DNA from: Burkholderiales bacterium
Lineage (GTDB): Bacteria > Pseudomonadota > Gammaproteobacteria > Burkholderiales > SG8-39
Reading direction: 5' to 3'
Assembly: GCA_020848075.1 (NCBI GenBank)
Contig: JADLAV010000084.1
Coordinates: forward strand, 4,387-68,386
DNA: 64,000 bases
Of the stretch, positions 2,593 to 41,042 are shown piece by piece (the stretch's first letter is position 1; each line of letters begins with the position of its first letter). The notes below the pieces were generated by a model. It saw only the letters and a program-made list of their open reading frames with translations, was not told the DNA's origin and did not search any database. Both the position numbers and the translations under genes were made by a program.

Positions 2593-2611
2593 GAGGTTCG
2601 TCCAGGCTTTC

Positions 2612-3760: not shown

Positions 3761-3761
3761 G

Positions 3762-3787
3762 CCCCGCGGCGGCTGCCCGCCGCGGGG
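3762..3787 (-). other. Intercistronic GC hairpin (11-bp perfect stem) between the ppsA-like stop and the ppsB-like start
   Basis: CCCCGCGGCGG-CTGC-CCGCCGCGGGG, read directly. It abuts the candidate GTG start at 3760. Confidence 0.4.
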
Positions 3788-3797
3788 CTGGACGTGG

Positions 3798-5630
3798 CTA
3801 CCGGGCGATGTTCACCGCGCCGGTGGAGCCGTCGACCCGGAGCAGCATGCCGGTCTTGATCACCTTCGTCGCGTGCCCGGTGCCGACGACGGCCGGCATG
3901 CCGTACTCGCGGCAGACGATCGCCGCGTGGCTCATCACGCCGCCGACGTCGGTGACGCACGCCTTGATCTTGGCGAACGCCGGCGCCCAGGACGGCGACG
4001 TGGTCGGCGCCACCAGGATCTCGCCCTCCTCGAGCTGGCGCACCTCGTCCACCGTCCGGCACACGCGCGCCCTGCCTTCGATCACGCCGGGGCTGCCGGC
4101 AAAGCCGTTCAGCACGCTGATGGTCGACGGGTCCTTCACCTGCTGCACCGCGGCCCAGTCGGCGAGCGACTTGTTGGTCACGCCCCAGAGCACGATGGTG
4201 AACGGCTCCTGGATGACTTCCGGCGCGGTGCCGATGGCGGGCGGTGCGTGCCACTCGCGGAACTTCTGCATAACGCCTTTGCGCCACGTGATCTCCTTCG
4301 GCCAGGTCTTGGTGCCGCGTGGCGTCGTGCCGGTGGCCCAGGCGGTGACGACGTCCCACAGGGCGGACTTCACCTCGTCACGCCGCAGGTACCAGACGTC
4401 CTCGATATCGGCGATGAGGCCGTGCTCCTTCAGGATCGCCGCGACCTCGCGCACCTTGTTCCAGAAGATCGAGTGGAACCAGTGCTCGACGTAGAAGAGG
4501 TGGTTCTCGACGTACGGGAACACGGTCTTCGCGGTGCCGAGCAGCTCGTCGAAGGTCTTGCGGTCCTCCTCGCGCTCGATGAGCGCGCGGTACTCCTTCA
4601 CGATGCGGTCGCGCTCGGCGCGCACCTGGTCCATCGGCCGCTCGATGTTGGCGCCCTGCTTGAGCTTGCCGATGTAGGTGGCGATGCCGGAGAGCGGCAC
4701 GTTCATCGCATCGTTCCAGCAGCGGTCGTGGTGGTACCAGCCGGTGCCGGTGGAGATGTAGAACCAGGGATCGCGCGCCTTGTCGAGCGCGGCGAGCCAC
4801 TCCTTGCCCTTCGGCAGCTTCTTCAGCGCCGGCTCGACCTCGCTCCACTCCTGGCTGAACGTGACCGCCTGCTCGATGCCGAGCTCGATCGCCTTGCGGG
4901 CGAGCTTCTTCAGCTCCTCGTCCGACTGGTACATGATGACGTCGATGCCGGAGATCATCTGCGTCACGCGCTGCACCGGGATGCTCGGGAACTGCTTCTG
5001 CACGAAGTCGAGGAAGAAGACGTACGCGGCGTAGCCCAGGTTCAGGAACTCGAAGTGGTACTGCCAGCACTTGATGCCGAGATTGATCAGGTCGTCGTAG
5101 GCCTTGATGAGGTGGAAGCCCTTCGACTCGCCGAGGCCTTCGGTCACCACGCGCAGGTCCTCCATCTCGGGCAGCGTCGGGATCGAGAGCCCCTGGAGTT
5201 CCGCGATGGTGTTCTTCATCTTCTGCTTCCACTTCTCTTCCAGCGCGTCCCAGTTCTTGTAGTAGTAGCCGGCGCGCTCCATGAAGTGCGGTGCGCGCGC
5301 CTCGATGTCGGCGGGATTCTTCACCGGGACCGGCGAGATGTAGACGTAGCCGTTGATGATGCGGTGATCGACCCCGCGCACCGGCGGCACCTGGAAGATG
5401 CGGTTGTTGTACTGCGACAGCGCCAGGAACCACGCCTCGTCCCAGATCGTGTCGAACGGATAGAGCGGCTCCGGGTAGTGCAGGCCGTCGTAGAACCAGA
5501 ACGTCTGCTCCTCGTAGGCCTTGCGCTCCGGGTCGTCCGTGACGAACTGGTACTGGTACGGGTACATCCGCTCCCAGCCCTCGGTGCCCGGAATGGCCTT
5601 GATGTCGTGCGGGTTCGGAAATGTCGGCAT
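3798..5630 (-). CDS. Phenylphosphate synthase alpha-subunit-like protein (PpsA-like; PEP-utilising mobile His domain at the C-terminus)
   Basis: The ORF 3798..5711 is trimmed to the ATG at 5630 (MPTFPNPHDIKAIPGTEGWERMYPYQYQFVTDD...), which has an AGGAGG RBS at 5635-5640. The C-terminus ...TTSPSWAPAFAKIKACVTDVGGVMSHAAIVCREYGMPAVVG is the phospho-His swivel domain. Confidence 0.85.
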   Translation of the reverse strand: MPTFPNPHDIKAIPGTEGWERMYPYQYQFVTDDPERKAYEEQTFWFYDGLHYPEPLYPFDTIWDEAWFLALSQYNNRIFQVPPVRGVDHRIINGYVYISPVPVKNPADIEARAPHFMERAGYYYKNWDALEEKWKQKMKNTIAELQGLSIPTLPEMEDLRVVTEGLGESKGFHLIKAYDDLINLGIKCWQYHFEFLNLGYAAYVFFLDFVQKQFPSIPVQRVTQMISGIDVIMYQSDEELKKLARKAIELGIEQAVTFSQEWSEVEPALKKLPKGKEWLAALDKARDPWFYISTGTGWYHHDRCWNDAMNVPLSGIATYIGKLKQGANIERPMDQVRAERDRIVKEYRALIEREEDRKTFDELLGTAKTVFPYVENHLFYVEHWFHSIFWNKVREVAAILKEHGLIADIEDVWYLRRDEVKSALWDVVTAWATGTTPRGTKTWPKEITWRKGVMQKFREWHAPPAIGTAPEVIQEPFTIVLWGVTNKSLADWAAVQQVKDPSTISVLNGFAGSPGVIEGRARVCRTVDEVRQLEEGEILVAPTTSPSWAPAFAKIKACVTDVGGVMSHAAIVCREYGMPAVVGTGHATKVIKTGMLLRVDGSTGAVNIAR

Positions 5631-5682
5631 GGCTCCTCCTCTCGATACCGGCGAGCGCGATGCGCTCGGGTGAGAGGCTGCC

Positions 5683-5698
5683 TGCAATCGCCGTGCCA
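5683..5698 (-). promoter_or_regulatory. Sigma54 (-24/-12) promoter TGGCACGGCGATTGCA
   Basis: The plus strand reads TGCAATCGCCGTGCCA, whose reverse complement is TGGCAC-N5-TTGCA, a perfect consensus. It lies about 55 nt upstream of the ppsA-like ATG and faces a divergent sigma54 activator gene. Confidence 0.8.
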
Positions 5699-5828
5699 CC
5701 GCAGCGCACAACGCCCCGCCGTCATTCTTGTCGACCGAGCCTGCCCGCGGAAAGTGAAGCTTGTCCTGCCGCGCCGCAGCATCATCATTTGGTGAATTGG
5801 CAGCGGCGAAAGCATCCGATACTCATCC

Positions 5829-5864
5829 TTTGATCAAATGGTGAAGTCGTGAGATGGATCAAAA
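5829..5864. promoter_or_regulatory. Candidate activator UAS (TTTGATCAAA palindrome plus a second GATCAAAA)
   Basis: A perfect 10-bp palindrome at 5829-5838 and a related half-site at 5857-5864, in a locally AT-richer tract about 135-165 bp upstream of the -24 element. Confidence 0.3.
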
Positions 5865-5913
5865 TGCGTTGTCCGTTGCGGCGATATAGACATCCATTCG
5901 GACGGAGGGCTCC

Positions 5914-7638
5914 ATGACGCGCTTGAAAAAGGTGGCGCATCGCGATGCCGGCGATCTGCGCTCGCAGGTCCGTTTCTCGGCCGAGAGCGGCCATATCTGG
6001 CTGCACGAGCACCGGATGCTGCTGGTGCATGCCGACGCGCAAGCATCGCTCCGCAAGGAGTTGATCGACACGCTCGGGCTCGCGCGCGCGCGGGGGCTCT
6101 TGACGCGCATGGGCTACGCGTCGGGCGTGCGCGATGCGGAACTGGCGCGAAACCGGATGCAGAGCAAGAGCGACCTCGACGCGTTCATGACCGGGCCGCA
6201 GCTGCACACCCTCGAGGGCATCGTGCTCGTCACGCCGATCAGGCTCGAGGTCGACCGTGCGCGCGGGAAGTTCTACGGCGAATTCCTGTGGGAGAACTCG
6301 TGGGAGGGGCAGACGCACCGGCGCGACTTCGGCATCCACCACGAGCCGGTGTGCTGGACCCAGATCGGCTACGTGTGCGGATACACGTCGGCCTTCATGG
6401 GCCGTCCGATCCTCTACAGGGAGGTCGAGTGCAGCGGCGCGGGCGACAGCCACTGCACGATCGTCGGCAAGCCCGTGGAAGAATGGGACGACGCCGACGC
6501 GGACATGCGGTACTTCAGCCCGGAGTCGATCGCGAATCAGCTGCTCGACCTGCAGACCCAGGTCGCGGAGCTTCGGTCCACGATCGAGGGGAAGGAGCGC
6601 CTGCCGGGCGACATGGTGGGCGACTCGCCGGGTTTCCGGCTCGCCTACGAGCTCCTGCGCAAGGCCGCGGGCACGCACATCACCGTGCTGCTGCTCGGCG
6701 AGACCGGCGTGGGCAAGGAAATGTTCGCGCGCCGGCTGCACGAGATGGGGCCGCGCGCGAGCGAGGCGCTGGTGGCCGTGAACTGCGCTGCGATTCCCCA
6801 GGAGCTCGTCGAGTCCGAGCTTTTCGGCGTCGAGAAAGGCGCCTACACCGGCGCGCAGGCCTCGCGTCCGGGACGGTTCGAGCGCGCGCACGGGGGGACG
6901 CTCTTTCTCGACGAGGTCGGCGACCTGCCGCTCGCGGCGCAGGCGAAGCTCTTGCGCGTGCTCCAGGACGGGGAAGTCGAGCGCCTCGGCGATCATCGCA
7001 CGCGCAAGGTCAACGTCCGGCTCGTCGCGGCGACCAACCGCAACCTGCAGGGGCTGGTGGCGCAGGGCAAGTTCCGCTCCGACCTCTACTATCGGTTGAA
7101 CGCCTACCAGATCCACATCCCGCCGCTCCGCGAGCGCCCGGAGGACACCCGGCTCCTGTTCAAGCGGCTGGTCGAGAAGTACTCGGTGATCCACGGCAAG
7201 AAGATCGCGGGCATCACCGACAAGGCGAAGAAGGCGCTGCTCGCGTACTCCTGGCCGGGAAACATCCGGGAGCTGCAGAACACCGTGGAGCGCGGTGTCA
7301 TCCTGGCCCCGCACGGCGGGCGCATGGAGATCGAGCATCTCTTCACGTCATGGGATGGTGGCAAGGCGGGCGAGATCGGCATCGACCGCTATGGCGCGCT
7401 CGACGTGCACGCCCGCGCGGGCGACGAGTTCTGCGAATCGGTCCTCGCCGGCACGATGACGCTCGACCAGGTCGAGGCCAAGCTGATCGAGATGGCCGTG
7501 AGCCGGGCCGGCGGAAATCTCTCGCTCGCGGCGCGCACGCTCGGGCTCACCCGCCCGCAGCTCGCCTATCGCCTGAAAGGGCTCCAGGCAGAGGCGCAGG
7601 GCGTCGTCGCACCGGCAGGCGAGTCGGCAACCGCATAG
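5914..7638 (+). CDS. Sigma54-dependent transcriptional activator, XylR/DmpR (NtrC) family with XylR_N + V4R sensor
   Basis: 574 aa. The N-terminal ...[36 protein letters not shown] is V4R-like. The AAA+ domain has [23 protein letters not shown] and FLDEVGDL. C-terminal HTH. GGAGGG RBS. Confidence 0.9.
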
Positions 7639-11891: not shown

Positions 11892-12950
11892 ATGCGGAAG
11901 ATCAAGGAAATGCTGGCGTCGTTTGCGCGGCCGCGCTTCGACTGGCTGCAGATCGAGGTCGCGGGAGTCTGCAACGCCGCCTGTGGCTACTGCACGCTGA
12001 GCTGCTACAAGGGCGCGCGCGAAGGTGGCCTCATGGATATGGGGACCTTCGAACGCATCGAGCCGTATTTTTCGCGCGCGGGGCTGGTGTTCCTGCAAGG
12101 CTGGGGCGAGCCGCTGCTGCACCCGCAATTCTGGGAGATGGCGCGCCGCGCCAAGGCCTCGGGCGCGCGCGTCGGCTTCACGACGAATGGGATGCGGCTG
12201 GATGCAACCCACCTCGCGCGGCTGCTCGATACCTCGATCGACATCATGGGCGTGAGCATCGCCGGCACCACCGCGGCGACCTCGGATCGCTGGCGCCAGG
12301 GGTGCGATTTCACGCGCGTCGGCGCAGTGCTTGCCGAGCTCAAGCGCATGAAGGACACGCGCGTCGGCGAGGGGCCGGACGTGCATATCGCCTACATGCT
12401 GCTCGCCTCGGGCTGGCGGGAGCTCGAGGGGCTGCCAGCGCTGGCCGAGGCCTGGGGCGCGCGCGAAGTGGTGGTCAACAACCTGAGCTTCATCGCCGAT
12501 CCGGCCCAGCAGCAGGAATCGCTCTTCGAGCGCCCCGATCTATGGGCGCCGGTGCTCGAGCAGATCGAGACCGTGCGCGAAGAGGCGGCGAGGCGCGGCA
12601 TCCGGCTGCACTATTACCGTCCCGACCGAACAGAGCCGCATGCCCTGTGCACCGAGAACGTGCTCAACGCGTGTTTCGTGTCCTGGCAGGGCGACGTCGC
12701 GCCCTGCGTGCTGAGCAACCACAGCATCAAGGCGGGGGCCGCCCCGGTCCATTACTTTCGGGGGCAGAGCTACCCGGTCGCGATTTGTGTGTTCGGCAAT
12801 GTGAATGAAACGCCGTTCGAGGCGATCTGGAAGTCGGATGCGGCGCGTGCGTTTCGCGCCGCCTACGTGCGGCGCCAGAAGCGCGAGCATCCCGGCACCG
12901 ACGGCTTGCCCGAGCCCTGCCGGCATTGCTACAAGCTGTACGAGCCGTAG
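11892..12950 (+). CDS. Radical SAM protein with C-terminal SPASM/twitch-like Cys cluster
   Basis: 352 aa. CNAACGYC (CX3CX2C), GWGEPLLHP, and C-terminal cysteines (...CTENVLNACFVSWQGDVAPCVL...PEPCRHC). GGAGG RBS 9 nt upstream. Confidence 0.85.
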   Translation: MRKIKEMLASFARPRFDWLQIEVAGVCNAACGYCTLSCYKGAREGGLMDMGTFERIEPYFSRAGLVFLQGWGEPLLHPQFWEMARRAKASGARVGFTTNGMRLDATHLARLLDTSIDIMGVSIAGTTAATSDRWRQGCDFTRVGAVLAELKRMKDTRVGEGPDVHIAYMLLASGWRELEGLPALAEAWGAREVVVNNLSFIADPAQQQESLFERPDLWAPVLEQIETVREEAARRGIRLHYYRPDRTEPHALCTENVLNACFVSWQGDVAPCVLSNHSIKAGAAPVHYFRGQSYPVAICVFGNVNETPFEAIWKSDAARAFRAAYVRRQKREHPGTDGLPEPCRHCYKLYEP

Positions 12951-13041: not shown

Positions 13042-13848
13042 CTACGCGGCGCGCATGGAGTTCGTGACCACCTGTGCGCTGAACGCGACGCGATCGGCGA
13101 GCAGTCGCAGCCGGCGCTCGCTCATCCCGGCCTCGGCCACCGTGACGCTCAGGCTGCCGAGGACGCTGCCCTCGCTGTCCATCACGGGCGCGGCGACGCC
13201 GATCACGCCGCGGGTCACCTCGCCGCGCGTGATGCAGTAGCCCCGCTTGCGGATCTCGCGCAGCGACGCTTGCACCTGCTCGATCGTCGTCCCCATCCCG
13301 GTGCGGCGGAACTCGGACGACTGCGTCACATAGAGCGCCTTCAGCTGTGGGGGCTTGAGGTGCGCGAGAATGACGCGCGACGCCGCGCCCCGGGCGAACG
13401 GCATCCCGCGCCCGCGCTCGTAGCCGCTGCGGATGCCAGTCGCGCCCGCCTCCTGGTGCACGCACAGGACGTGGCCCTTGTAGTAACGGCAGAGGAGCCC
13501 GATTCCGGGGACCTCCTGCGCGAGCGCTTGCAGCACAGGGCGGCCGTTGATGATGAGCGGATCGCTCGAGCGCATCGCATAGTCGAGCTCGGCGATGCGC
13601 GGCCCGAGCGTGTAGCCGATGTCGGGCAGCGAGATCACGAGGCCTGCGTCGGCGAGCACGCGCAGGTAGCGGTAGAGCGTGGATCGCGGGCAGCGCAACC
13701 GGGCCATCATCTGCTCGGGCGTCCAGCGCAGGTGGTCTTCTTCGAACAAGTCGAGGATTCCGATCATCTTCTCCAGGCTGCTGCGACGCACAACGGCCAC
13801 TTTGCGCGTGCGCCTGCGCCCGGGACGGGATCCTTGGATTTGTCTCAT
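13042..13848 (-). CDS. IclR-family transcriptional regulator
   Basis: Typical wHTH (TPEQMMARLRCPRSTLYRYLRVLADAGLV) plus an IclR effector domain. The ATG at 13848 is preferred over the GTG at 13866. Confidence 0.85.
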   Translation of the reverse strand: MRQIQGSRPGRRRTRKVAVVRRSSLEKMIGILDLFEEDHLRWTPEQMMARLRCPRSTLYRYLRVLADAGLVISLPDIGYTLGPRIAELDYAMRSSDPLIINGRPVLQALAQEVPGIGLLCRYYKGHVLCVHQEAGATGIRSGYERGRGMPFARGAASRVILAHLKPPQLKALYVTQSSEFRRTGMGTTIEQVQASLREIRKRGYCITRGEVTRGVIGVAAPVMDSEGSVLGSLSVTVAEAGMSERRLRLLADRVAFSAQVVTNSMRAA

Positions 13849-13931
13849 ATCACGAGACTTTAACACCCCGTTGGATCATCGAGCCCTTGGATGTACGATT
13901 CCAGGACTTTCCCGACCTGTTGGACTGCCAC

Positions 13932-15581
13932 ATGGATGCGAGAGCCAAACGAACCAAGCTGTCGTCCAGAGAAGCCGACCGACGGCCGATCCAGGACCTG
14001 CGCGAGTGGCTCGCGCGCGTGGACGCCATGGGTGAGCTCGTCCGCGTCCGCGAGCCGGTCGACCGCGATGAGGAGATGAGCGCCATCAGCTACCTCGTCG
14101 CCAAGCAGCATCCTTCGCCCGCCGTGCTGTTCGAGCGCGCGCGCGGGTTCGAAAAGAGCCCGATCGGCGCGCAACTGCTGTGGAACATTCTCGGCCCGAG
14201 CACCCGCAGGATCGCGCTCACGCTCGAGGAGCCGCCGGACACGCCCACGATCGAGCTCATCCGGCGCGTGAAAGACAAGCTCAAGCGGCGCATCGTGCCG
14301 CGCGAAGTGTCGCGCGCGAAGGCGCCCGTCTACGAGAATACGCTCACCGGGCGCAAGATCGATCTCGACGCGCTGCCGATTCCGCGCCACTGGCCGCGCG
14401 ATGGCGGCCGCTACGCGGGCACGGGCGATGCGGTGATCACGCGCGACCCCGACAGCGGCTACCTGAACGTCGGCACCTATCGGATGATGGTGCAGGGGAA
14501 GGCCGAGGCGGGCCTCTATCTCTCCCCGGGCAAGGACGCGCGCCTGCACATCACGCGTGCGTGGCAGCAGGGCAAGGCCATCGAGGTTGCGGCGGCCTGG
14601 GGCATCGATCCGATCTTCATGCTGGTCGGGTCGCAGACTTTCCCGAAGAACGTCTCGGAGTACGAATACGCGGGTGGCATCAAGGGCGAGCCGATTCCGG
14701 TCGTCCGCGGCGCCACTACGGACCTCCTGATTCCGGCGAACGCCGAGTTCGTCGTCGAAGGCATCATCCGGCCGAACTCGGTGAAATCCGAAGGACCCTT
14801 CGGCGAGTTCCCGGGCTACTACGGGCGGCCGGAGGCGGGCTGCCCGCTGGTGGAGATCACCGCCGTGCACCATCGCACGAAGCCCATCCTGACCAACGCG
14901 TTGATGGCGGATTACCCGTCGTGCGAACAGAGCGGGTTCTTCTCGATCATCCGCTCGGCCAAGATCTGGGACGACCTCGACAAGCTCGGCATCCCAGGCA
15001 TCTGCGGCGTCTACTCGCACCCGGCTGCCGCCGGCGGCTTCGGGATGACGATCATCAGCATCGAGCAGCGTCATGCGGGCCACGCGGCGCAGGCGCTCGC
15101 GCTCGCCGCGCAGGTCCCGGGCGGTGCCTACTACACCAAGTGGATCGTCGCGGTGGACGAGGATGTCGATCCCACCGACATGGACCAGGTGATCTGGGCG
15201 ATGGCGAGCCGCTGCAACCCGATCGACGACATCGACATCCTGCGCAACACCTGGAGCACCTGGCTCGATCCGACGCAGAACCCGCCGGAGAAGCGGCCCT
15301 ACGGCTCCAAGGCGCTGATCAACGCCTGCAAGGAGCATCGCCACCTGCCGGTCTTCTCGAAGCGCACCACGCTGCGCAAGCCCGTGTACGACAAGGTCGC
15401 GCAGCGCTGGAAGACGCTCGGGCTGCCGGGCGCGATTCCGCCCGTGCGCGCGTTCGAGGCCGAGGCCAAGGTCGCTTATCATGAGGTCGGCGGCTTCGAG
15501 CCCGGGCAGCAGCCCGGCGAGAAGAAGAAGGACAAGGGCCAGGGGAAAGACCAGCCCGCGGCGCGGGGCGCCAAATCGTGA
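13932..15581 (+). CDS. UbiD-family (de)carboxylase, paralogue 1 of a tandem pair
   Basis: NVGTYR, VSEYEYAGG and EGPFGEFPGYYGRP motifs. The ATG at 13932 is preferred to the TTG at 13887. C-terminal Lys/Gly/Gln-rich tail (GEKKKDKGQGKDQ). Confidence 0.9.
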   Translation: MDARAKRTKLSSREADRRPIQDLREWLARVDAMGELVRVREPVDRDEEMSAISYLVAKQHPSPAVLFERARGFEKSPIGAQLLWNILGPSTRRIALTLEEPPDTPTIELIRRVKDKLKRRIVPREVSRAKAPVYENTLTGRKIDLDALPIPRHWPRDGGRYAGTGDAVITRDPDSGYLNVGTYRMMVQGKAEAGLYLSPGKDARLHITRAWQQGKAIEVAAAWGIDPIFMLVGSQTFPKNVSEYEYAGGIKGEPIPVVRGATTDLLIPANAEFVVEGIIRPNSVKSEGPFGEFPGYYGRPEAGCPLVEITAVHHRTKPILTNALMADYPSCEQSGFFSIIRSAKIWDDLDKLGIPGICGVYSHPAAAGGFGMTIISIEQRHAGHAAQALALAAQVPGGAYYTKWIVAVDEDVDPTDMDQVIWAMASRCNPIDDIDILRNTWSTWLDPTQNPPEKRPYGSKALINACKEHRHLPVFSKRTTLRKPVYDKVAQRWKTLGLPGAIPPVRAFEAEAKVAYHEVGGFEPGQQPGEKKKDKGQGKDQPAARGAKS

Positions 15582-15619
15582 CCGCGAAGCGCGCGGACAA
15601 CCGGCGAAGGAGGTAGGAC

Positions 15620-17125
15620 ATGGACCGCAGCAGGATGATCGGTATCAGGAGCCTCGGCGACTGGCTGCAGCTGGTCGAGTCGATCGGCGAGCTGAAGCGC
15701 ATCAAGGCGAGCGTCGACTGGGATCTCGAGATGAGCACCATCACGTACATGGCCGGCAAGACCGTCGGCGGTCCGGCCCTCCTCTTCGAGAACATCAAGG
15801 ACCACCCGGGCGGAAGACTCCTCTTCAATCCGTTCGGCAGCAGCCTGAACCGCGTTGCGATCTCGATCCGCGAGGAACCGACCAAGGATTCGCTCGGCCT
15901 CGTGCGCAGCCTGAGCGAGAAGATGAAGAGGCGCGTGGCGCCGGTGGTCGTGGATCCGAAGGCCGCGGAGGTGAACCAGAACATCGAGACCGGCGACAAG
16001 GTCGACGTCACGCGGTTTCCCGCGCCGAAGATGTGGCCCCTCGACGGCGGCCGCTATCTCGGCACCGCCGATGCGGTCATCACCATGAATCCCGAGGACG
16101 GCCGCACCAATCTCGGCACCTACCGGCAGATGGTCCAGGGGCCGAAGCAGGTCGGCTTCTACTCCTCGCCCGGCAAGGACGCCACGCTCGACAAGCAGCG
16201 CTGGTGGGATCGCGGCCAGCCGGCGCCGGTCGCCGCGGTGTACGGCCTCGAGCCGCTCCTTTTCCTCGCCTCGTCGACGTCGTTTCCCAAGGACGTCTCC
16301 GAATACGAGTTCGCCGGCGGCATCAATGGCGCGCCGATCGAGGTGTTCCGGAGCGACATCACCCAGCTCGAGCTCCCCGCGCACGCCGAGATCATCATCG
16401 AGGGCTTCTGTCACCCGGGCAAGACCGCGCCCGAGGGCCCGTTCGGCGAGTTCACCGGGTACTACGGCCGCCCGGGCGGCGCGACGCCTTACATCGACAT
16501 CAAGGCAATCCGCTATCGCAACGATCCGATCGTCACCAGCGCGCTCATGGCCGACGGCTGGTCGAACGAGTGCGGCCTGATGTGGGGGATGGCGAAGGCC
16601 GCCAAGGTGTGGACCGATCTCAACGCGATGGGCATTCCTGGGATCCGGGGCGTCTGGTCGCCGCCCGAGGCCGCGGGCTGGGGCATGACGGTCGTGTCGA
16701 TCAAGCAGCAGTACGCCGGCCACGCCGCGCAGGTGGGCGCGCTTGCCGCGCAGTGCATGGGCGGTGCGTATTTCACCAAGTACATCGTGGTGGTGGACGA
16801 CGACGTCGATCCGACCGATCTCGGCGACGTGGCGTGGGCGATGGTCACGCGCTCGCGGCCGGCGCAGTCGATCGACATCCTGCGCGAGACCTGGAGCACC
16901 TACCTCGATCCGAGCCAGAACCCGCCCGAGATCCGGCCGTGGGGCTCCAAGTGCATCATCAACGCCTGCAAGGAGTACAAGCACATCAAGTCGTTCGCGC
17001 GCCGCAGCCAGTTGAAGCGCGAAGTGTACGAATCGGTCTGCGCGCGCTGGAGTGAGCTCGGCCTCGACGGCGAGCCGCCCCGCATCACCCACTTCGAGGA
17101 CTTCGAGGGCCAGGTCACCAGCTGA
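15620..17125 (+). CDS. UbiD-family (de)carboxylase, paralogue 2 of a tandem pair
   Basis: NLGTYR, VSEYEFAGG and EGPFGEFTGYYGRP motifs. Strong GAAGGAGG RBS. Clearly homologous along its full length to the preceding gene. Confidence 0.9.
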   Translation: MDRSRMIGIRSLGDWLQLVESIGELKRIKASVDWDLEMSTITYMAGKTVGGPALLFENIKDHPGGRLLFNPFGSSLNRVAISIREEPTKDSLGLVRSLSEKMKRRVAPVVVDPKAAEVNQNIETGDKVDVTRFPAPKMWPLDGGRYLGTADAVITMNPEDGRTNLGTYRQMVQGPKQVGFYSSPGKDATLDKQRWWDRGQPAPVAAVYGLEPLLFLASSTSFPKDVSEYEFAGGINGAPIEVFRSDITQLELPAHAEIIIEGFCHPGKTAPEGPFGEFTGYYGRPGGATPYIDIKAIRYRNDPIVTSALMADGWSNECGLMWGMAKAAKVWTDLNAMGIPGIRGVWSPPEAAGWGMTVVSIKQQYAGHAAQVGALAAQCMGGAYFTKYIVVVDDDVDPTDLGDVAWAMVTRSRPAQSIDILRETWSTYLDPSQNPPEIRPWGSKCIINACKEYKHIKSFARRSQLKREVYESVCARWSELGLDGEPPRITHFEDFEGQVTS

Positions 17126-17208
17126 CTCGTCCCCCCCGGGGGCGGCGTGCGCCCGGAGAAAGCCGCCCGCGCAAGAAGGCGGCATCCGCGGAAAGGAGGA
17201 GAAGGGCA

Positions 17209-19131
17209 GTGAGCGAAGGGCAACGCCGGTATTCGGCTTTCCGGCGGTTCGCCGAGAACGCGCTCGGCGTGCTCATCACCGGGCTCGGCCTGGTCGCGAT
17301 CCTCGACCTGCCGATGCAGGTGGCAGGCATTTCGGTGTTCCCGCAGCAGTATCTGGGCGCCTTCTGGGGACTGGTGACCTGCCTCGCGTTCATCACCTGC
17401 CGTGCATCCGCGCAGGGCGAGGGCGGCACACCTGGCCCGACGCCCTGGTACGACTACGTGCTCGCCGCGGTCTCGCTCGTGCTCGGGCTGTACGTCGCCT
17501 TCTGGTATCCGAGCATCATGGATACGATCGGCCTCTTGAGCCCCGATCGGACGCTGCTCGGCGTGCTCGCGATCGCCGTCGTGCTCGAGTCCACGCGGCG
17601 GGTGGCGGGATGGCCGCTGGTGGCGATCGTGGTCGTCTTCGTTCTCTACGGCCGCTTCGGTGACATGTTTCCCGGTCCGCTCGCGACCACCGGCCTATCG
17701 TGGGAGCGGCTGGTCAACCTGCTCTTCCTCGGAACGGACGCACTCTTCGGCTCGGCACTGCGCATCGCGGTCCTGCTGGTGTTCGCGTTCATTCTGTTCG
17801 GGCAGGTGCTCTTCGCGACAGGCGGCGGCGACATCTTTCTCAAGCTCGCCCAGGCCACCATGGGCCGGTACCGCGGCGGTCCGGCCAAGATGGCGGTGGT
17901 GGCGAGCGGCATGTTCGGCAGCATCTCGGGCAGCGCAGTCGCGAACGTCGCCAGCACCGGCGTCATCACCATCCCGCTGATGAAGCGCACCGGCTACAGC
18001 CCGACATTCGCCGGCGCGGTCGAGGCGGTCGCCTCGACGGGCGGGGCGATCATGCCGCCGGTCATGGGCGCCGCCGCTTTCCTGATGACCGAGTTCCTGG
18101 GTATCCCGTACAGTGCCGTCGTTCTCGCGGCCTTCGTGCCGGCGCTGATCTACTATGGGACGCTCCTCGTCCAGATCGATCTCCGCGCGATCCGCGAGCG
18201 GCTGCGGGGCTTGCCAAGGGATGATCTGCCGCCGGTACGCCCGGTGCTGCGCGAGGGCTGGGTGTTCCTCCTCCCGCTCGTCGTCCTGGTGGGAACCATC
18301 TTCTTCCTGAACACCGAGGCCGCGGAGGCGGCGCTGTATGCCGTTGCATCGAACATCGTCCTCGTCCTCCTGCGCCGGCGCGGGTGGCGTGCGCTCACTC
18401 CGCGCCGGCTGCTGGCGCTCTCCGTGGAGCTCGCCCACTCCATGGTGCAGATCACGGTGATCTGCGCCGCGGCCGGCTTCATCGTCGGGCTGGTCGCCTA
18501 CACCGGCCTCGGCGTCTCGCTCGCCGACGTGCTGGTCCAGTTCGCTGGACACAACCTGCTGCTGCTCGCCCTGTGCACCGCGCTCGCGAGCACCGTGCTC
18601 GGGATGGGAATGCCCGCCACCGCGTGTTACATCCTGGTCGCAGTACTGATGGCGCCGGCCCTCGTTTCGGCGGGAGTCCAGCCCCTGCTCGCGCACCTCT
18701 TCGTCTTCTACTTCGGCAACTTCTCCTTCCTCACGCCGCCGGTCGCGCTGGCGGTGACCGCAGCGTGCTCGATCGCGAGCGCGCCGTTCCTCGCGACCTG
18801 CTGGCAGTCGATCCGCCTCGCGCTGGCGGGCTTCATCGCGCCGTTCATGTTTCTCTACAAGCCTGGCATGGCGTTGATGGGGTCGCCCGGCGATGTCGCG
18901 TGGGCGATCTTCGATTCCGCGGTCGCCGTTGTGCTGCTCGCCGTCGCCGTCGAGGGATACTGGTACCGGCGGCTCGCGTGGTGGGCGCGCTGCCTGGTGG
19001 GTGCTGCGGCGCTGCTCATGTTCGTCCCCGGTTGGGAAACGCGGATCGCAGGGCTGGTGCTGGGTCCGTCCATTCTATATTTGGAGTACCGCCGATCGCT
19101 CTCCAGCGCCCGCTACCAGACCGCGCAGTGA
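17209..19131 (+). CDS. TRAP transporter fused (4TM/12TM) permease, TAXI-type
   Basis: 640-aa polytopic membrane protein. GTG start with AAAGGAGGAG RBS. Followed by a TAXI receptor gene. Confidence 0.9.
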   Translation: MSEGQRRYSAFRRFAENALGVLITGLGLVAILDLPMQVAGISVFPQQYLGAFWGLVTCLAFITCRASAQGEGGTPGPTPWYDYVLAAVSLVLGLYVAFWYPSIMDTIGLLSPDRTLLGVLAIAVVLESTRRVAGWPLVAIVVVFVLYGRFGDMFPGPLATTGLSWERLVNLLFLGTDALFGSALRIAVLLVFAFILFGQVLFATGGGDIFLKLAQATMGRYRGGPAKMAVVASGMFGSISGSAVANVASTGVITIPLMKRTGYSPTFAGAVEAVASTGGAIMPPVMGAAAFLMTEFLGIPYSAVVLAAFVPALIYYGTLLVQIDLRAIRERLRGLPRDDLPPVRPVLREGWVFLLPLVVLVGTIFFLNTEAAEAALYAVASNIVLVLLRRRGWRALTPRRLLALSVELAHSMVQITVICAAAGFIVGLVAYTGLGVSLADVLVQFAGHNLLLLALCTALASTVLGMGMPATACYILVAVLMAPALVSAGVQPLLAHLFVFYFGNFSFLTPPVALAVTAACSIASAPFLATCWQSIRLALAGFIAPFMFLYKPGMALMGSPGDVAWAIFDSAVAVVLLAVAVEGYWYRRLAWWARCLVGAAALLMFVPGWETRIAGLVLGPSILYLEYRRSLSSARYQTAQ

Positions 19132-19168
19132 AGGATCGTCAACCGAGATGACAGAGGAGGTGTTGACC

Positions 19169-20215
19169 ATGGGAACCCAACCGCTCGCTCGCCGCCGGAC
19201 GTTGGCGGCGGCCGCAGCCTTCGCTGCGGTGCTCACGATCGTGCCATTTGGTTCTGCCTCGGCGCAGGAGGTGCCGAAGGTGATGAACCTCGCGACGCAT
19301 GGCGTCGGCAGCGTGCTGAACGCCATCGGCATCGGGCTCGGTAAGGTGCTCACCACGAACCTGGACACGCAGGTCAAAGTCATGCCGACCGCCGGGCCGA
19401 CGCAGTGGCTCCCCCAGATCGCGACCGGCGAGATCCAAATGGGGGTCCTGAACAACTACGATGCGCTGCACGGCCGCCACGCCGATGCCGGCTACGAGAA
19501 GGCGTTGGCCGGAAAGGGCGCGCCGATCATGCTGCTCACCTCGGGCTCGCGCAACTGGATGGGGGCCGTGACCAGCACCGATACGGGGATCAAGGGCTGC
19601 GCCGACCTCAAGGGCAAGCGCATCGTGAGCCGCTACACCGGCAGCACGGGCGTCACCGCGCAAGTTGCGGCCATCACCGCCAACTGCGGCCTCGCTCCCG
19701 GCATGTTCAAGGAAGTGGTCGTCGCCGGCGCGCCGGACAAGGGCGTCCAGGCGGTCCTGGACGGCACGGCGGACGTGGCGGGCTCGGCCGCGGTCGGGAT
19801 GGGGATCATCGCCGAGCTCGACGCGCGCAAAGGTGCGCAGTTCGTGTCGCTCGATCCCTCGCCCGAGGCGTGGGCGCGATTCCGCGAGCACTTTCCCGCC
19901 TCGGTGAAGAAGGTCGATCCGGGCAAGGGCCGCGTGGGCGTGCGCGAGCCCGTGTACCTCGCCGAGTATCCGTTCTACCTGGTCGCCGGCGAGAAGCTGA
20001 GCGACGCGGCTGCCTACCGGATCGTCAAGGCGCTGTGGGAGCACAACGCCGAGCTCTTCCCGCTGCACGCGCGCCTCAAGGACTGGGTGAAGGAGAACTT
20101 CGTCGACGCGGAGGCCACGATTCCCTACCACCCGGGCGCCGTGAAGTTCTACAAGGAGATCGGCGCCTGGTCGCCCAAGATGGACGAGGTGCAGGCGAAG
20201 CTGCTCAAGCGGTAG
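19169..20215 (+). CDS. TAXI-family TRAP solute-binding receptor
   Basis: The ORF is trimmed to the ATG at 19169 (MGTQPLARRRTLAAAAAFAAVL signal). C-terminal ...IPYHPGAVKFYKEIG is typical of TAXI receptors. GAGGAGG RBS. Confidence 0.9.
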   Translation: MGTQPLARRRTLAAAAAFAAVLTIVPFGSASAQEVPKVMNLATHGVGSVLNAIGIGLGKVLTTNLDTQVKVMPTAGPTQWLPQIATGEIQMGVLNNYDALHGRHADAGYEKALAGKGAPIMLLTSGSRNWMGAVTSTDTGIKGCADLKGKRIVSRYTGSTGVTAQVAAITANCGLAPGMFKEVVVAGAPDKGVQAVLDGTADVAGSAAVGMGIIAELDARKGAQFVSLDPSPEAWARFREHFPASVKKVDPGKGRVGVREPVYLAEYPFYLVAGEKLSDAAAYRIVKALWEHNAELFPLHARLKDWVKENFVDAEATIPYHPGAVKFYKEIGAWSPKMDEVQAKLLKR

Positions 20216-21634: not shown

Positions 21635-24502
<2,868 letters not shown>

Positions 24503-24503
24503 G

Positions 24504-24896
24504 TCAGCCTTTCCCGGCCGCCTCGACCGCCTCTCGGTAGGCCGCGGCGTCGAGCAGCTTCGCGAGGTCGCCGGCATCCGCGGGCTTCAGCCGGAAGAGC
24601 CACGTGGCATAGGGATCCTGGTTCACTTTCTCGGGCGCGTCCGCGAGCGCGGTGTTCGACGCCACGACCTCGCCCGCGATCGGCGAAAAGACGTCCGACG
24701 CTGCCTTCACCGACTCCACGACGCAGCATGCGTCGCCCGCATTGAGCTTGCGGCCGACTTCCGGCACCTCGACGAAGACGAGGTCGCCGAGCTGCTCTTG
24801 CGCGTGCTCGGTGATGCCGACGGTCACCGTGCCGTCGCGCTCGGCGCGGACCCACTCGTGATCCGCCGTGTACTTCAGGTTCTCGGGTACGTTCAT
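24504..24896 (-). CDS. gcvH: Glycine cleavage system H protein
   Basis: 130 aa with lipoyl-lysine motif [11 protein letters not shown]. Confidence 0.95.
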
Positions 24897-24923
24897 CTCA
24901 GGCTCCGGGTTGGCAGAATCTCA

Positions 24924-25036
24924 TCCCCTCCTTCTCAAGGAGGGGTGCCGGCGAAGCCGGCGGGGTGGTTGCAGCTTCGACCAAGGCACGGCACCACCCC
25001 GGCGCTGCGCGCCACCCCTCCTCGGAGAGGAGGGGA
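24924..25036. repeat. GC-rich double-hairpin repeat, inverted pair, in the gcvT-gcvH gap
   Basis: CCCCTCCTTCTCAAGGAGGGGTGCCGGCGAAGCCGGCGGGGTGGTT ... CACCACCCCGGCGCTGCGCGCCACCCCTCCTCGGAGAGGAGGGG. Confidence 0.65.
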
Positions 25037-25050
25037 TCGAAAGCGGCGGT

Positions 25051-26151
25051 TCACTCATCCGCACGCACCAGGACCTTGCCATGCCGCACGAACGGCGGCT
25101 TCACGGCGCGCGCGGCGAGCGGCTTGCCGCGCACGTCCGCGCGCACGGTCTCCCCGAGCGCGACGCCCGCGGGCAGGCGCGCGAGTGCGATCGAGCGCTG
25201 CATGGTCGGGGAGAACGTGCCGCTCGTGATTTCGCCGACGCCATGTTCGGTGCGCACGGCCTGGTGCGGGCGCAGCACGCCGCTGCGCTCGAGCGCGACG
25301 AGCCCAAGGAAGGCGCGCGCGGGCTTGCCGGCCGCGACCAGGGCGCTCTTGCCGACGAAGTCGCGCGGGCCCGCGAGATCGACCGTCCATGCAAGTCCCG
25401 ACTCGAGCGGCGTCACCGTCTCGTCCATGTCCTGCCCGTAGAGATTCATGCCGGCCTCCAGCCGCAGCGTGTCGCGGGCGCCAAGCCCGCACGGCCGCAC
25501 GCTGGCGGCGGCGAGGGCGTTCCACGCGGCTTCCGCGCGCGCGGCGGGGACGAGCAGCTCGAAGCCGTCCTCGCCGGTGTAGCCCGTCCGTGCAATGAAG
25601 AGGCCGGCCGCGTCGGCCGCACAGAACGGCGCGAGCGGCTCGCTTGCGGCGCGCGTCTCCGGCAATGCGGCCCAGCACTTCGCGCGCGCGTTCGGGCCCT
25701 GCACGGCGATGATCGCGAGGTCGCGGCGAGGGGCGAGCGAAACCGCGGGTGCGCGCTCGGCGCGCAGCTTTTCGAGCCACGCCAGGTCTTTCCCGGCGGT
25801 GGCGGCGTTGACGATCGCACGGAAGCGGCCGTCGCCGAGAAAGTACACGATCAGGTCGTCGAGGACGCCGCCGTCTTCGCGCAGCATGCACGAGTAGAGC
25901 GCACGGCCGGGCTCGCGCAGCTTCGCGACGTCGTTCGCGAGCGCGTAGCGGAGGAGATCGCGCGCGTCGTCGCCTCGTGCGGCAAGATCGACCGCGAGCA
26001 TGTGCGAGGTGTCGAACATGCCGGCATCGCGCCGCACCGCGTGGTGCTCCTCGAGCTGCGAGCCGTAGTGCAGCGGCATCTCCCAGCCGGCGAAGTCGAC
26101 GAGCTTCGCGCCGGCCCGGCGGTGCGCCGCGGTGAGTGGGGTCTGGTGCAA
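25051..26151 (-). CDS. gcvT: Aminomethyltransferase, glycine cleavage T protein
   Basis: Best start is the TTG at 26151 (M)[28 protein letters not shown], with a GGGAGAG RBS. The longer ORF to 26424 would run through the riboswitch. Confidence 0.9.
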
Positions 26152-26167
26152 GGGCTCTCCCGTCCGC

Positions 26168-26206
26168 AAACGAAAAGGAGCGATGCCGGTCTCCCGGAAT
26201 CGCCCC
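26168..26206 (-). terminator. Riboswitch expression-platform terminator hairpin plus U-tract
   Basis: RNA sense: GGGGCGAT-TCCGGGAGACCGGC-ATCGCTCC followed by UUUUCGUUU. The 5' arm overlaps the 3' end of aptamer 2. Confidence 0.5.
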
Positions 26207-26418
26207 TCTGTCCTTTGACCTGAGAGTTTACGGCGCGCGCAGCCGGTCGGCTCCGTGCGCCGCGTGCCCCTTCGGTGGGCGAGCCCCGGGCTCGCCGCTC
26301 TCCAGAGTTGCGGGGCGATCACGCCGGCCCCGGTCGCGGAGTTCCTGTGCCTGAGCGATTGCGGGCGCTTGCGCCTTCGGCGGCGGCCGTGGAACGCCTC
26401 GGCCGCGCTCTTCCCCGT
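26200..26418 (-). ncRNA. Tandem glycine riboswitch (two aptamers)
   Basis: Reverse complement reads GGGGAAGAGCG...CGCCGAAGGCGCAAGCG...CUCAGGCACAGGAAC (aptamer 1) then CUCUGGAGAGCGG...CCCACCGAAGGGGCA...ACUCUCAGGUCAAAGGACAGAGGGG (aptamer 2). It sits directly upstream of gcvT. Confidence 0.85.
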
Positions 26419-26475
26419 GACCACGCGAGTCTAGCACCGTGAGGACGAACGGGGCAGGCCGCCCGGCGCGGGAAC

Positions 26476-26994
26476 CTACATCGGCTCGTCCTTGAGCACG
26501 CCGCCGTCGAGCCGCACCATGTCGAGCGTGATCTCCTCGAAGCGCAGGACGCGCCCGCCGTGCGCGCGCGCGAAGGCCTGCGCGCCCTCGATCCGCGCGA
26601 AGGCGGCGAGCGTCGGCCCCATGCTCCCTTTCATGCGGCTGCCGTGCACGAAGAACGCGGTCCGCGCGTCGATCCAATGTCCCTGCGGGCTGTTCCAGTC
26701 GGTCTTGCCCATGTCCTGGGTGAACACGCCCACCACGCGCTTTCTCTGCTCCGGCTGCAGGTAGATCGACACGAGCTCCATCGTGTCGCAGAAGAAGTCG
26801 GGCTCGCCGCGGTCGTAGACGATCTGGCCTTTCGGGCCGGGGTAGTCGGCGAGGATCATGCCGTCGAGCGAGCACGCGGTCTGCCGCGTGATCTCCTGCG
26901 GCTGCGCCAGCTGGCGCTCCTCGCCGCAGCCGGCGAAGAAAGCGAAGAGGGCGAGCATCGCGGCGAGCCGCACGCCGTTCGCGGATGCGCTCAT
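26476..26994 (-). CDS. nosL: NosL copper-chaperone lipoprotein
   Basis: Trimmed to the ATG at 26994 (MSASANGVRLAAMLALFAFFAGC lipobox). ATGA overlap with the nosY stop. Confidence 0.85.
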   Translation of the reverse strand: MSASANGVRLAAMLALFAFFAGCGEERQLAQPQEITRQTACSLDGMILADYPGPKGQIVYDRGEPDFFCDTMELVSIYLQPEQRKRVVGVFTQDMGKTDWNSPQGHWIDARTAFFVHGSRMKGSMGPTLAAFARIEGAQAFARAHGGRVLRFEEITLDMVRLDGGVLKDEPM

Positions 26995-27821
26995 TTGAAC
27001 CTCCATGTCGCAATCGCCAGCGGTGCGACGATCCAGGCGAGCATCGCCGCGCCGAGCACCCACGGATCGGCAAGCGCCGGCGGGACCACCGTCGCGAGGC
27101 CGTAGAGGGTCTTCACCCCTTCCATGCCGAAGACGTTGAGGATGCGGAAGACGTCCGCCGGGTTGGCGAGCAGCAGGTAGGGCAAGACGTCGCCGCCCAC
27201 GCGCCCCCCGGTGAAGACGAGCACGCCGAGCAGCCCGAGATCGAAGACCAGGACGAAGAAGAACCAGAGCGCGATCGCCGCGCCGCTCGCGCGCGCCCGG
27301 TCGGCCGCCATCACCGACACCATGACCGCCATGCTGAGGAACGCCATGCCCATGGCGAGCGCGCTCAGGACGAAGCGGGCGTAGTGGTAGAGCGCGGCGG
27401 CATCCGCCTGGTGCGCGATCGCCGCCCCGGCGAGGCCGAAGCCCGCGAGCGTGGAGACGGCGAGCGCAGCCGCGAGCCCGAGGAACTTGCCGAGCAGCAG
27501 CTCGAAGCGCGTCAGCGGAAGCGAGAGCAGCAGATCGAGCGAGCCCCGCTCGCGCTCGCCCGCGACCGCGTCGTAGCCGAGGAGGAGGACGATCACCGGG
27601 ATGAGGTAGATCACGAGGCTCGTCAGGCTGGCGATCGTGACCTCGATCCCGCGGAAGCCGATCGCGCCCTGCTGCGCGGCGCCGAAGTAGGCGATGAGGA
27701 GCGCGAAGGCGGCGAAGACGAGCGCCACCGCGAGGACCCAGAAGTCGCGGATCCGCTCGCGCAGCTCCTTCGCCGCGACGAGCACGATCTGCCTGGGGGA
27801 GATGCGCGCCGGCCGCCTCAC
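26991..27821 (-). CDS. nosY: NosY ABC-type permease
   Basis: Hydrophobic six-TM-like sequence. The GTG at 27821 overlaps the nosF stop (GTGA). No internal Met is available. Confidence 0.8.
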   Translation of the reverse strand: MRRPARISPRQIVLVAAKELRERIRDFWVLAVALVFAAFALLIAYFGAAQQGAIGFRGIEVTIASLTSLVIYLIPVIVLLLGYDAVAGERERGSLDLLLSLPLTRFELLLGKFLGLAAALAVSTLAGFGLAGAAIAHQADAAALYHYARFVLSALAMGMAFLSMAVMVSVMAADRARASGAAIALWFFFVLVFDLGLLGVLVFTGGRVGGDVLPYLLLANPADVFRILNVFGMEGVKTLYGLATVVPPALADPWVLGAAMLAWIVAPLAIATWRFK

Positions 27822-28753
27822 GGCTGCACCCGCGGCGGCTCGGACGCCGCATGGCCGAGGAAGATGTCCTCGAGCGATGGCTCGCGCAGCTGCACGTCCT
27901 CGAGATCGGCCATCAGCGGCGCGAGCGCGCCGAGGAGCGCCATCTTCTCGCGGCGCAGGCACACGATGCGCACCGCGCCGTCCTGCGGTTCGGCGGGCGG
28001 GAAGCCCGCGGCGGCGAGCGCCGACTGCACCGTGGGCGCGGCGCCCGGACGCACGCGGATGTCGGCGCGCAGCCGCAGGTCGATGCCGTCGCGCAGCCCC
28101 GCGAGAGTGCCGACCGCGGCGATGCGCCCGTTGCGCATGATCGCGAGCCGGTCGACGCGCTCCTGCATCTCGGCGAGCACGTGGGAGGTCAACATCATCG
28201 TCACCCCGCGCCCGCGCAGCTCCGCGAGCAGCACGTAGAACTCGCGCCGGCTCTGGGGGTCGAGGCCAGCGGTGGGCTCGTCCAGAAAGAGGAGCGCGGG
28301 GCGCCCCAGCAGCGCCTGCGCGAGGCCGAGCCGCTGGCGCATGCCCTTCGAGTAGCCGTGCACCTTGCGCTGCGCTGCCGCGCGCAGCCCGACGCGGTCG
28401 AGGAGCTCGTCGCATTGCGCGCGGTCGGCGCCCTTCAGCCCGGCGAAGAAGCGCAGCGTCTCGAGCCCGGTCAGGTTGTCCCAGAGGACGACGTTCTCCG
28501 GGAGGTAGCCGATCTGCCGGCGCACCTCGCGAAACGCGGCGCCGTCGACGCGCTTACCCTGGATCTCGATGGTCCCGGCGGTGGGGGGCGCGAGGCCGAG
28601 CATCAGCCGGAACAGGGTCGTCTTGCCCGCGCCGTTGTGGCCGATGAGGCCGAAGATCTCCCCGCGCGCGATCGCCAGGCTCGCGTCCTCCACCGCGCAG
28701 ACCTCGCCGAAGCGCTTGCCGACGCCGCGGAGCTCAATGACGCTGCTTGACAA
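27818..28753 (-). CDS. nosF: NosF ABC ATPase
   Basis: Walker A GHNGAGKTT, signature YSKGMRQRL, Walker B LLFLDEP. TTG start at 28753 overlaps the nosD end. Confidence 0.9.
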   Translation of the reverse strand: MSSSVIELRGVGKRFGEVCAVEDASLAIARGEIFGLIGHNGAGKTTLFRLMLGLAPPTAGTIEIQGKRVDGAAFREVRRQIGYLPENVVLWDNLTGLETLRFFAGLKGADRAQCDELLDRVGLRAAAQRKVHGYSKGMRQRLGLAQALLGRPALLFLDEPTAGLDPQSRREFYVLLAELRGRGVTMMLTSHVLAEMQERVDRLAIMRNGRIAAVGTLAGLRDGIDLRLRADIRVRPGAAPTVQSALAAAGFPPAEPQDGAVRIVCLRREKMALLGALAPLMADLEDVQLREPSLEDIFLGHAASEPPRVQP

Positions 28754-30023: not shown

Positions 30024-30028
30024 CGCCG

Positions 30029-41024: not shown

Positions 41025-41042
41025 ATCGGCGGGAGGCGACCG

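Follow-up and report, generated by a model that had tools for sequence, protein, structure and literature searches.

Two predicted UbiD-family decarboxylases with aspartate at a metal-ligand position are encoded beside a TAXI-TRAP importer in a Burkholderiales genome

When two genes for UbiD-family enzymes lie in tandem, do they encode the subunits of one (de)carboxylase or two enzymes that act separately? The question is raised by a 64,000-nucleotide stretch of a metagenome-assembled Burkholderiales bacterium genome (hereafter the window; assembly GCA_020848075.1, contig JADLAV010000084.1, positions 4,387 to 68,386 of the forward strand), in which an IclR-family regulator gene diverges from two UbiD genes, here called UbiD1 and UbiD2, that are followed by genes for a fused TAXI-TRAP permease and a TAXI solute-binding receptor (Table 1). 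An original prediction, made from the sequence alone, took the UbiD pair for a heteromeric enzyme and drew attention to a histidine-to-aspartate change at the metal site of both proteins. From the comparative analysis described here we lean, with some reserve, towards an IclR-controlled catabolic cassette that combines organic-acid import with two independent UbiD decarboxylases dependent on prenylated flavin mononucleotide (prFMN).

Both proteins carry the UbiD_N, UbiD, and UbiD_C domains (Pfam) and exceed the cut-off of the family model TIGR00148 (284 and 290 bits against 244.85). Neither passes the equivalog models for PpcA, PpcB, VdcC, menaquinone decarboxylase, or E. coli UbiD; scores against the phenylphosphate carboxylase models were 237 and 269 bits for the beta subunit (TIGR02724, cut-off 469) and 172 and 212 bits for the alpha subunit (TIGR02723, cut-off 565). 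UbiD1 and UbiD2 are 51% identical to each other. The AlphaFold2 model of UbiD2 (pLDDT 82.7, pTM 0.82) has the three-domain UbiD fold, and Foldseek TM-scores of 0.76–0.82 were obtained against PhdA, E. coli UbiD, HudA, and Fdc1. The catalytic Arg-Glu-Glu/Asp network is present in both proteins (R184 and E287/E292 in UbiD1; R169 and E272/E277 in UbiD2). No cultured or plasmid-borne relative above 37% identity was found in PLSDB. Sequence and model thus support the assignment of both proteins to a divergent, uncharacterised clade of putative UbiD-family decarboxylases. The original prediction of a divergent subfamily linked to a TRAP importer therefore stands in that part; its heteromeric character is not supported, as set out below.

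The gene map, built from GC3-filtered open reading frames (ORFs) with Pfam and NCBIfam scans, agrees with the arrangement described by the original prediction. The two UbiD genes are full-length and lie head-to-tail, with 38 nt between the UbiD1 stop (15581) and the UbiD2 ATG (15620), and a strong ribosome-binding site (AAGGAGG) is located 7 nt 5′ of the latter. The IclR gene diverges across 83 bp between the ATG codons at 13848 and 13932. Both importer proteins score above their family cut-offs (permease, 581 bits on TIGR02123 TRAP_fused, cut-off 321; receptor, 136 bits on TIGR02122 TRAP_TAXI, cut-off 84), and the receptor has an N-terminal hydrophobic signal sequence. The public PGAP annotation gives the same product lengths for UbiD1 (549 aa) and the receptor (348 aa), which fixes the starts at 13932 and 19169; it names the products "UbiD family decarboxylase" (twice) and "TAXI family TRAP transporter solute-binding subunit". 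The whole five-gene cassette recurs at 93–94% identity, with different flanks, in three further loci (L171–L173).

The original prediction regarded tandem UbiD genes as the signature of a heteromeric enzyme of the phenylphosphate carboxylase alpha/beta type. To see how the two genes are paired elsewhere, neighbours within 10 kb were surveyed for the best 80 of at least 220 species-level genomes that carry a UbiD1-type gene (77–94% identity) and for 80 metagenome loci retrieved with UbiD2 (matches down to 60% identity). The best 80 UbiD1 hosts are all metagenome-assembled genomes, belonging to Burkholderiales, Alphaproteobacteria, Binatia, Deltaproteobacteria, Chloroflexota, and Udaeobacter. 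A UbiD2-type neighbour was present in five of the 80 UbiD1-type loci and absent nearby in the other 75; conversely, a UbiD1-type neighbour of at least 78% identity was detected in 3/80 loci retrieved with UbiD2. Each paralogue has far closer orthologues elsewhere than its partner. The IclR and UbiD1 genes occur without UbiD2 in L012, L015, L032, L040, and L063, and copies of UbiD2 at 87–90% identity are commonly found without UbiD1, accompanied by GntR and TctC genes. The usual context of UbiD2-type genes is a GntR/FCD gene upstream (18 loci) and one or two TctC receptor genes or a TAXI/TRAP pair downstream, often with a coenzyme A (CoA) ligase gene. The UbiD partner of UbiD1-type genes also varies, from HmfF-like (27% identity) to PpcB-like (36–39%); in Alphaproteobacteria the order is UbiX, IclR, UbiD1, an HmfF-like UbiD (27% identity to UbiD2; His in the ligand column), TctC, Amidohydro_2, CoA ligase, OYE, and a PhdC-like gene.

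The closest species-level genome (L011, 89–92% identity) carries the genes in the order IclR, UbiD1, GntR, UbiD2, TRAP, TAXI. Because a GntR gene stands between the two UbiDs there, and because the two modules also occur apart, the arrangement in the window is best read as a probable joining of an IclR-UbiD1 module with a GntR-UbiD2-transporter module, followed by loss of the GntR gene. The inserted gene belongs to the GntR/FCD family (L011:11700-12473), and members of the same GntR family precede UbiD2-type genes in 18 metagenome loci; by implication, the 38-nt junction of the window was created when this gene was lost.

These data bear directly on the possibility that UbiD1 and UbiD2 must assemble as the alpha and beta chains of one heteromeric (de)carboxylase like PpcA/PpcB, which we consider unlikely. 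Conserved pairing as an argument for a heteromer was rejected in view of its rarity in both surveys. A changing partner, a GntR gene that splits the pair in the closest genome, the full catalytic set kept by both proteins, the sub-threshold PpcA and PpcB scores, and a cassette that holds no gamma or delta subunit gene all speak against it. Homo-oligomers have been reported for xanthine-8-carboxylate decarboxylase (XCDC; homo-hexamer), PA0254 (homo-dimer), and E. coli UbiD (homo-hexamer).

Several observations nevertheless weigh against two independent enzymes in an import-linked catabolic cassette. Three gene orders place a UbiD1-type gene next to a UbiD2-type gene, and in one of them (L046 and L109) the ORFs overlap by 8 nt. 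Some functional coupling of the two proteins, perhaps even a complex, is thus conceivable, and a heteromer is further favoured by the 38–39-nt spacer, found in at least four independent contigs, and by the clade-specific SPGKD motif common to both. Adjacency in three gene orders points, however, to a functional link through the same or successive substrates and not to obligate subunits. UbiD1-type genes also occur with class II aldolase genes in housekeeping neighbourhoods (ileS-lspA and glnBA-amtB), which is unlike aromatic catabolism. No UbiX or PhdC-like gene was detected in the window by tblastn. Finally, the relatives of the TAXI receptor in the PDB are only distant (E ~1e-14), too distant for its ligand to be inferred from solved receptors.

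Other arrangements of the same gene types were recorded in the surveys. A class II aldolase/adducin gene of ~248 aa lies directly 5′ of the UbiD1-type gene, on the same strand, in 27 loci (L056–L085 and others; for example L032:3756-4502), many of them between ileS-lspA and glnB-glnA-amtB. This two-gene module is conserved in Binatia and Deltaproteobacteria and absent from the window. In marine Rhodospirillaceae-like contigs (L086:6952-11569, L061, L140) an IclR gene heads a run of two or three consecutive UbiD genes (UbiD2-like, 65%; PpcB-like, 36%; UbiD1-type, 77–78%), after which comes a short-chain dehydrogenase/reductase gene.

How should the aspartate at the metal site be interpreted? 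In A. niger Fdc1, Mn2+ is bound by N168, H191, and E233, beside R173; in PA0254 the metal ligands are H188 and E229, with R170, E273, and E278. The canonical Asn/His/Glu site is altered in both window proteins: Asn and Glu are kept, and His is replaced by Asp. In UbiD1 the motif SPGKDARLH (14523-14549) places D202 at R184+18, and in UbiD2 SPGKDATLD (16166-16192) places D187 at R169+18. The spacing of R169, D187, E228, E272, and E277 in UbiD2 is identical to that of R170, H188, E229, E273, and E278 in PA0254, with an offset of one residue. The PpcB-like UbiD encoded at 919-2430 has H183 at R165+18, in IIKGKHGDMH, and BLASTP aligns this stretch to UbiD2 without a gap; LGNRH of PhdA (7PDA) pairs with SPGKD, and the closest representatives with His carry CSPGKHGxLDREAWW, in which H stands where the clade has D. 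Since the Arg+18 spacing is shared with Fdc1, PA0254, the PpcB-like UbiD, PhdA, and the SPGKH sisters, the predicted equivalence of the Asp with the His ligand is secure by position. The original prediction had correctly read the His of the PpcB-like UbiD and the Asp of each paralogue, as well as the retention of EGPFGE and SEYE in both paralogues. The later His of UbiD1 (DARLH), four residues on, was considered as an alternative ligand and ruled out: UbiD2 and most UbiD2-type proteins have Asp there, and a proper alignment does not bring a conserved His to the site.

Within the clade SPGKD does not vary (240/240 homologue clusters), and all 120 UbiD1 clusters read LSPGKDARLH. Beyond the clade the position is variable. 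A family alignment of 117 UbiD sequences combined 50%-identity cluster representatives with the three UbiDs of the window and eight of their close relatives; its ligand column holds H in 74 sequences, D in 28 (about 10 of these being the added clade members), Q in seven, G in four, and N in three, while the Asn, the Arg, the ligand Glu, and the E-x4-E motif are near-invariant. In an ungapped alignment the characterised vanillate decarboxylase ShVdcC has H at +17 and D at +18; further out in the family, for example in E. coli UbiD, the His lies two residues off. We conclude from these alignments that, of the three ligand positions, Arg+18 is the most plastic. Because Asp recurs across the family, the change is less notable than the original prediction implied; by this sampling it is a recurrent minority state, a variant internal to the family and not an exceptional one. 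As a conservative exchange of the His for a carboxylate ligand, the Asp should still bind a hard divalent cation, with no loss of function expected. In the literature, no paper was found on an Asp ligand variant, on a UbiD sequence-similarity network, or on GntR/TctC-linked UbiDs.

It is also conceivable, if quite unlikely, that the Asp alters the chemistry of the site, either because another metal is used (for example Mg2+ or Fe2+ for Mn2+) and the handling of the cofactor or the sensitivity to oxygen differs, or because one of the paralogues serves as a chaperone or partner without catalysis of its own. Carboxylates are normal ligands of both Mn2+ and Mg2+, and neither paralogue has lost the Arg, the E-x4-E motif, or the Asn and Glu ligands; the ligand column varies across the family with everything else conserved. 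The invariance of the Asp within the clade would fit an altered chemistry, as would the unusually strong conservation of UbiD1-type proteins (77–90% identity across phyla) and the position of their genes beside varying UbiDs, UbiX, and PhdC-like genes. Phthaloyl-CoA decarboxylase (Pcd) has been reported with Fe(II), so that metal choice does differ within the family.

The supply of prFMN can be considered together with the left end of the window. The original prediction was right that UbiX is missing from the window, yet this absence is probably an edge effect. The left end cuts a UPF0261 gene that lies downstream of the PpcB equivalog, and in relatives of the same 90% cluster (L174, L175) the operon continues UPF0261-CBS-UbiX-DUF2390; by this synteny, UbiX is probably located 1.5–2.5 kb past the left edge. 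The truncated operon is part of an anaerobic phenol-type cluster (1-7638) in which ppcA, ppcC, and ppcD were not seen. A PNPOx_N/split-barrel gene of ~155 aa recurs beside UbiX near UbiD1-type genes (for example L008:18510-18977; also L014, L019, L020, L022, L026–L028, L030, L033, L035, L041, and L042); it probably encodes a PhdC-like prFMN maturase (PMC13040415).

The IclR protein scored 77 bits against the PcaR/PcaU/PobR subfamily model TIGR02431, under the cut-off of 285. Coding conservation among orthologues reaches upstream of an internal Met, through RSSLEKM, which favours the ATG at 13848 as the start. The inverted repeat GTCTC-N7-GAGAC noticed in the original prediction is real: it lies at 13842-13858, overlapping the IclR start codon, and its core is conserved, a TCYC-N7-GRGA box being present at the IclR start in all nine orthologous IclR/UbiD1 intergenic regions. 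In each of the nine, one or more additional boxes follow downstream, usually at a distance of 65–95 bp from the first, against a background of 1.17 per kb. Three TTGGAT hexamers had also been placed within the 83-bp spacer; there are indeed three, within 59 bp and out of six copies in the whole window, but the first falls inside the first codons of IclR and thus outside the 83 bp. They are not conserved in the orthologous promoters, so their function is doubtful, and they were rejected as the operator; the conserved element is the pair of TCYC-N7-GRGA boxes.

Several hints from gene context point to an aromatic or heteroaromatic carboxylate as the likely substrate. Genes for aromatic CoA-ligase-like proteins, their family confirmed by Pfam, occur in some UbiD2-type loci; a Rieske oxygenase, a flavin adenine dinucleotide monooxygenase, and an extradiol dioxygenase are putatively encoded in some loci of this type, as judged by sequence motifs only. 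Phthalate-type CoA-transferase clusters adjoin both UbiD1- and UbiD2-type genes, a Gram-positive-looking contig has the order IclR, UbiD2-type, BenE, UbiX, CoA ligase, and the import of o-phthalate by a TAXI-TRAP system provides a precedent. In L005 (4097-11512) a UbiD2-type gene (P0118, 63% identity) has as neighbours an MFS transporter gene, a pair of Amidohydro_2 genes, and the gene for the large subunit of a molybdenum (Mo) hydroxylase, a layout that resembles, by gene order alone, the cluster for conversion of lumazine through xanthine-8-carboxylate to xanthine in Cupriavidus sp. LA-1. No single pathway emerged from these heterogeneous neighbourhoods: genes for an HmfF-like UbiD and a Mo enzyme occur in them, as do those for aromatic oxygenases, CoA ligases, phthalate-type CoA-transferases, and housekeeping functions. 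Pfam scans detected no CoA_transf_3 or AMP-binding gene in the cassette and, as originally predicted for the window, no CoA-transferase among its major ORFs. A free acid is favoured as substrate since the cassette holds no CoA-activating enzyme and the match to Pcd is weak.

Under the catabolic-cassette reading, the IclR regulator would bind two 15-bp palindromic boxes (TCYC-N7-GRGA), one of them over its own start codon. By family membership, the secreted TAXI receptor would capture an organic acid, most likely a mono- or polycarboxylate with an aromatic or heteroaromatic ring, and pass it to the fused TRAP permease. Two separate cytoplasmic UbiDs, which have the residues expected of prFMN-dependent enzymes, would then remove carboxyl groups non-oxidatively; Asn, Glu, and Asp would hold the divalent metal that anchors the prFMN phosphate, and the exchange to Asp would preserve a functional site. 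The comparative context suggests that UbiD1 and UbiD2 are most likely independent homo-oligomers acting on successive or related substrates. By synteny in relatives, a UbiX gene outside the cassette would supply both enzymes with prFMN; its probable place is the end of the pps/ppcB operon, past the left edge.

A bolder interpretation, to which we give little credence, is that in this Burkholderiales lineage the SPGKD paralogues have become a prFMN system of their own, heteromeric or made up of two enzymes, in which the Asp site shifts metal preference. The system would act on an unrecognised but widespread (hetero)aromatic polycarboxylate that enters through the TAXI-TRAP importer. UbiD1-type proteins are ~80% identical across Proteobacteria, Binatia, Chloroflexota, and Verrucomicrobiota, mostly from metagenome-assembled genomes, and if this interpretation were true a new and abundant decarboxylation reaction in soil and groundwater would follow. 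That the UbiDs carboxylate a neutral aromatic within the adjacent anaerobic phenol-type pathway, with the transporter unrelated, is highly improbable: ppsA-, ppsB-, and ppcB-like genes do lie 8–13 kb upstream, the nos genes of the host make denitrification possible, and UbiD reactions are reversible, but a dedicated regulator and an anionic-solute importer are encoded in the cassette, which occurs in L171 without pps/ppc genes and is separated in the window from the phenol-type cluster by seven unrelated genes.

Table 1. Coordinates of the cassette and of neighbouring features in the window.
Feature	Position	Strand	Detail
IclR-family regulator	13042..13848	-	Pfam HTH_IclR and IclR_C; divergent from the operon
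UbiD1	13932..15581	+	549 aa; N179/R184/D202/E243/E287-x4-E292; Lys-rich tail; Pfam, TIGR00148; PGAP MCC6611563.1
UbiD2	15620..17125	+	501 aa; N164/R169/D187/E228/E272-x4-E277; Pfam, TIGR00148
Fused TAXI-TRAP membrane permease	17209..19131	+	DctQM-type; GTG start; AAGGAGG ribosome-binding site; TIGR02123, Pfam DctM
TAXI periplasmic solute-binding protein	19169..20215	+	348 aa; signal peptide MGTQPLARRRTLAAAAAF...ASAQE; TIGR02122, Pfam NMT1_3
Codon of UbiD1 D202	14535..14537	+	Canonical His metal-ligand position
Codon of UbiD2 D187	16178..16180	+	Canonical His metal-ligand position
Candidate operator box 1, TCTCATATCACGAGA	13843..13857	.	Core of GTCTC-N7-GAGAC, over the IclR start codon; in 9/9 orthologous regions
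Candidate operator box 2, TCCCGACCTGTTGGA	13910..13924	.	67 bp from box 1, just 5′ of the UbiD1 ATG
Three TTGGAT hexamers	13834, 13871, 13887 (13834..13892)	+	Local enrichment
PpcB equivalog	919-2430	-	TIGR02724, 580 bits, above cut-off
ppsB-like gene	2612-3760	-	
ppsA-like gene	3798-5711	-	
XylR-like sigma54 activator	5914-7638	+	

Some further features of the cassette and of the window were recorded. The 83-nt spacer between UbiD2 and the permease (17126-17208) contains a G+C-rich palindrome (CCCCCCCGGGGG...) without a T-run, which could form an mRNA stem-loop that sets the ratio of enzyme to transporter expression. UbiD1 ends in a low-complexity Lys/Gly/Gln-rich tail (GQQPGEKKKDKGQGKDQPAARGAKS; 15459-15581) that UbiD2 does not have, and orthologue matches to UbiD1 mostly end at residues 530–545. 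Just upstream of IclR, at 11892-12950, a radical SAM/SPASM protein resembling a maturase of tungsten-cofactor oxidoreductases is encoded (TIGR04317, 127 bits, under the cut-off of 380); it does not belong to the L171 cassette. The rest of the window is ordinary chromosome, with beta-oxidation genes and, in the regions 21635-36555, 40920-42371, 59360-60490, and 60950-61735, gcvP/H/T, nosD/nosR/nosZ-like, and EgtB-/EgtD-like (ergothioneine) genes and a second IclR regulator beside a CCG-domain protein.

UbiD enzymes are in demand as catalysts for reversible (de)carboxylation, and substrates are known for few of their subfamilies. The locus is otherwise a routine, uncharacterised catabolic operon whose products are already named generically in the public annotation. 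It offers a compact entry to a large and abundant clade without a characterised member that could be placed in it, and supplies a receptor for ligand screening, a regulator whose operator is predicted, and two enzymes in which the metal site naturally carries Asp.

Among known systems, the PpcA/PpcB enzymes of Thauera/Aromatoleum likewise have UbiD paralogues encoded together, and the PpcB-like protein of the window is 36% identical to UbiD2. They differ in that the window proteins miss the equivalog cut-offs, the cassette has no genes for the gamma (small) and delta (phosphatase) subunits, PpcB has His at the ligand position, and the pairing of UbiD1 with UbiD2 is not conserved. The anaerobic o-phthalate cluster of Aromatoleum/Azoarcus comprises a TAXI-TRAP system, a CoA transferase, the UbiD-like Pcd, and UbiX. 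It resembles the window in placing a TAXI-TRAP importer for an aromatic acid beside a UbiD decarboxylase; the cassette, unlike it, has no CoA-transferase or ligase, and the Pcd match reaches E ~1e-18. XCDC of Cupriavidus sp. LA-1 (LA1_0150), a recently characterised UbiD with a heteroaromatic acid as substrate, was assayed in the presence of UbiX, Mn2+, and K+; in layout, its cluster differs from the cassette, which lacks Mo-hydroxylase and amidohydrolase genes. PA0254/HudA and A. niger Fdc1 have near-identical residue numbering; they differ in that identity is ~23–26% and that the window proteins have Asp for His at Arg+18. The best match in the PDB is PhdA, the phenazine-1-carboxylate decarboxylase of Mycolicibacterium fortuitum (7PDA; E 8.5e-73 for UbiD1 and 6e-78 for UbiD2). 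PhdA differs in its His (LGNRH), its genomic context, and its ~34% identity (Foldseek), but it shares the three-domain UbiD fold (Foldseek TM 0.76–0.80) and the Arg+18 spacing, and its substrate is a free heteroaromatic acid.

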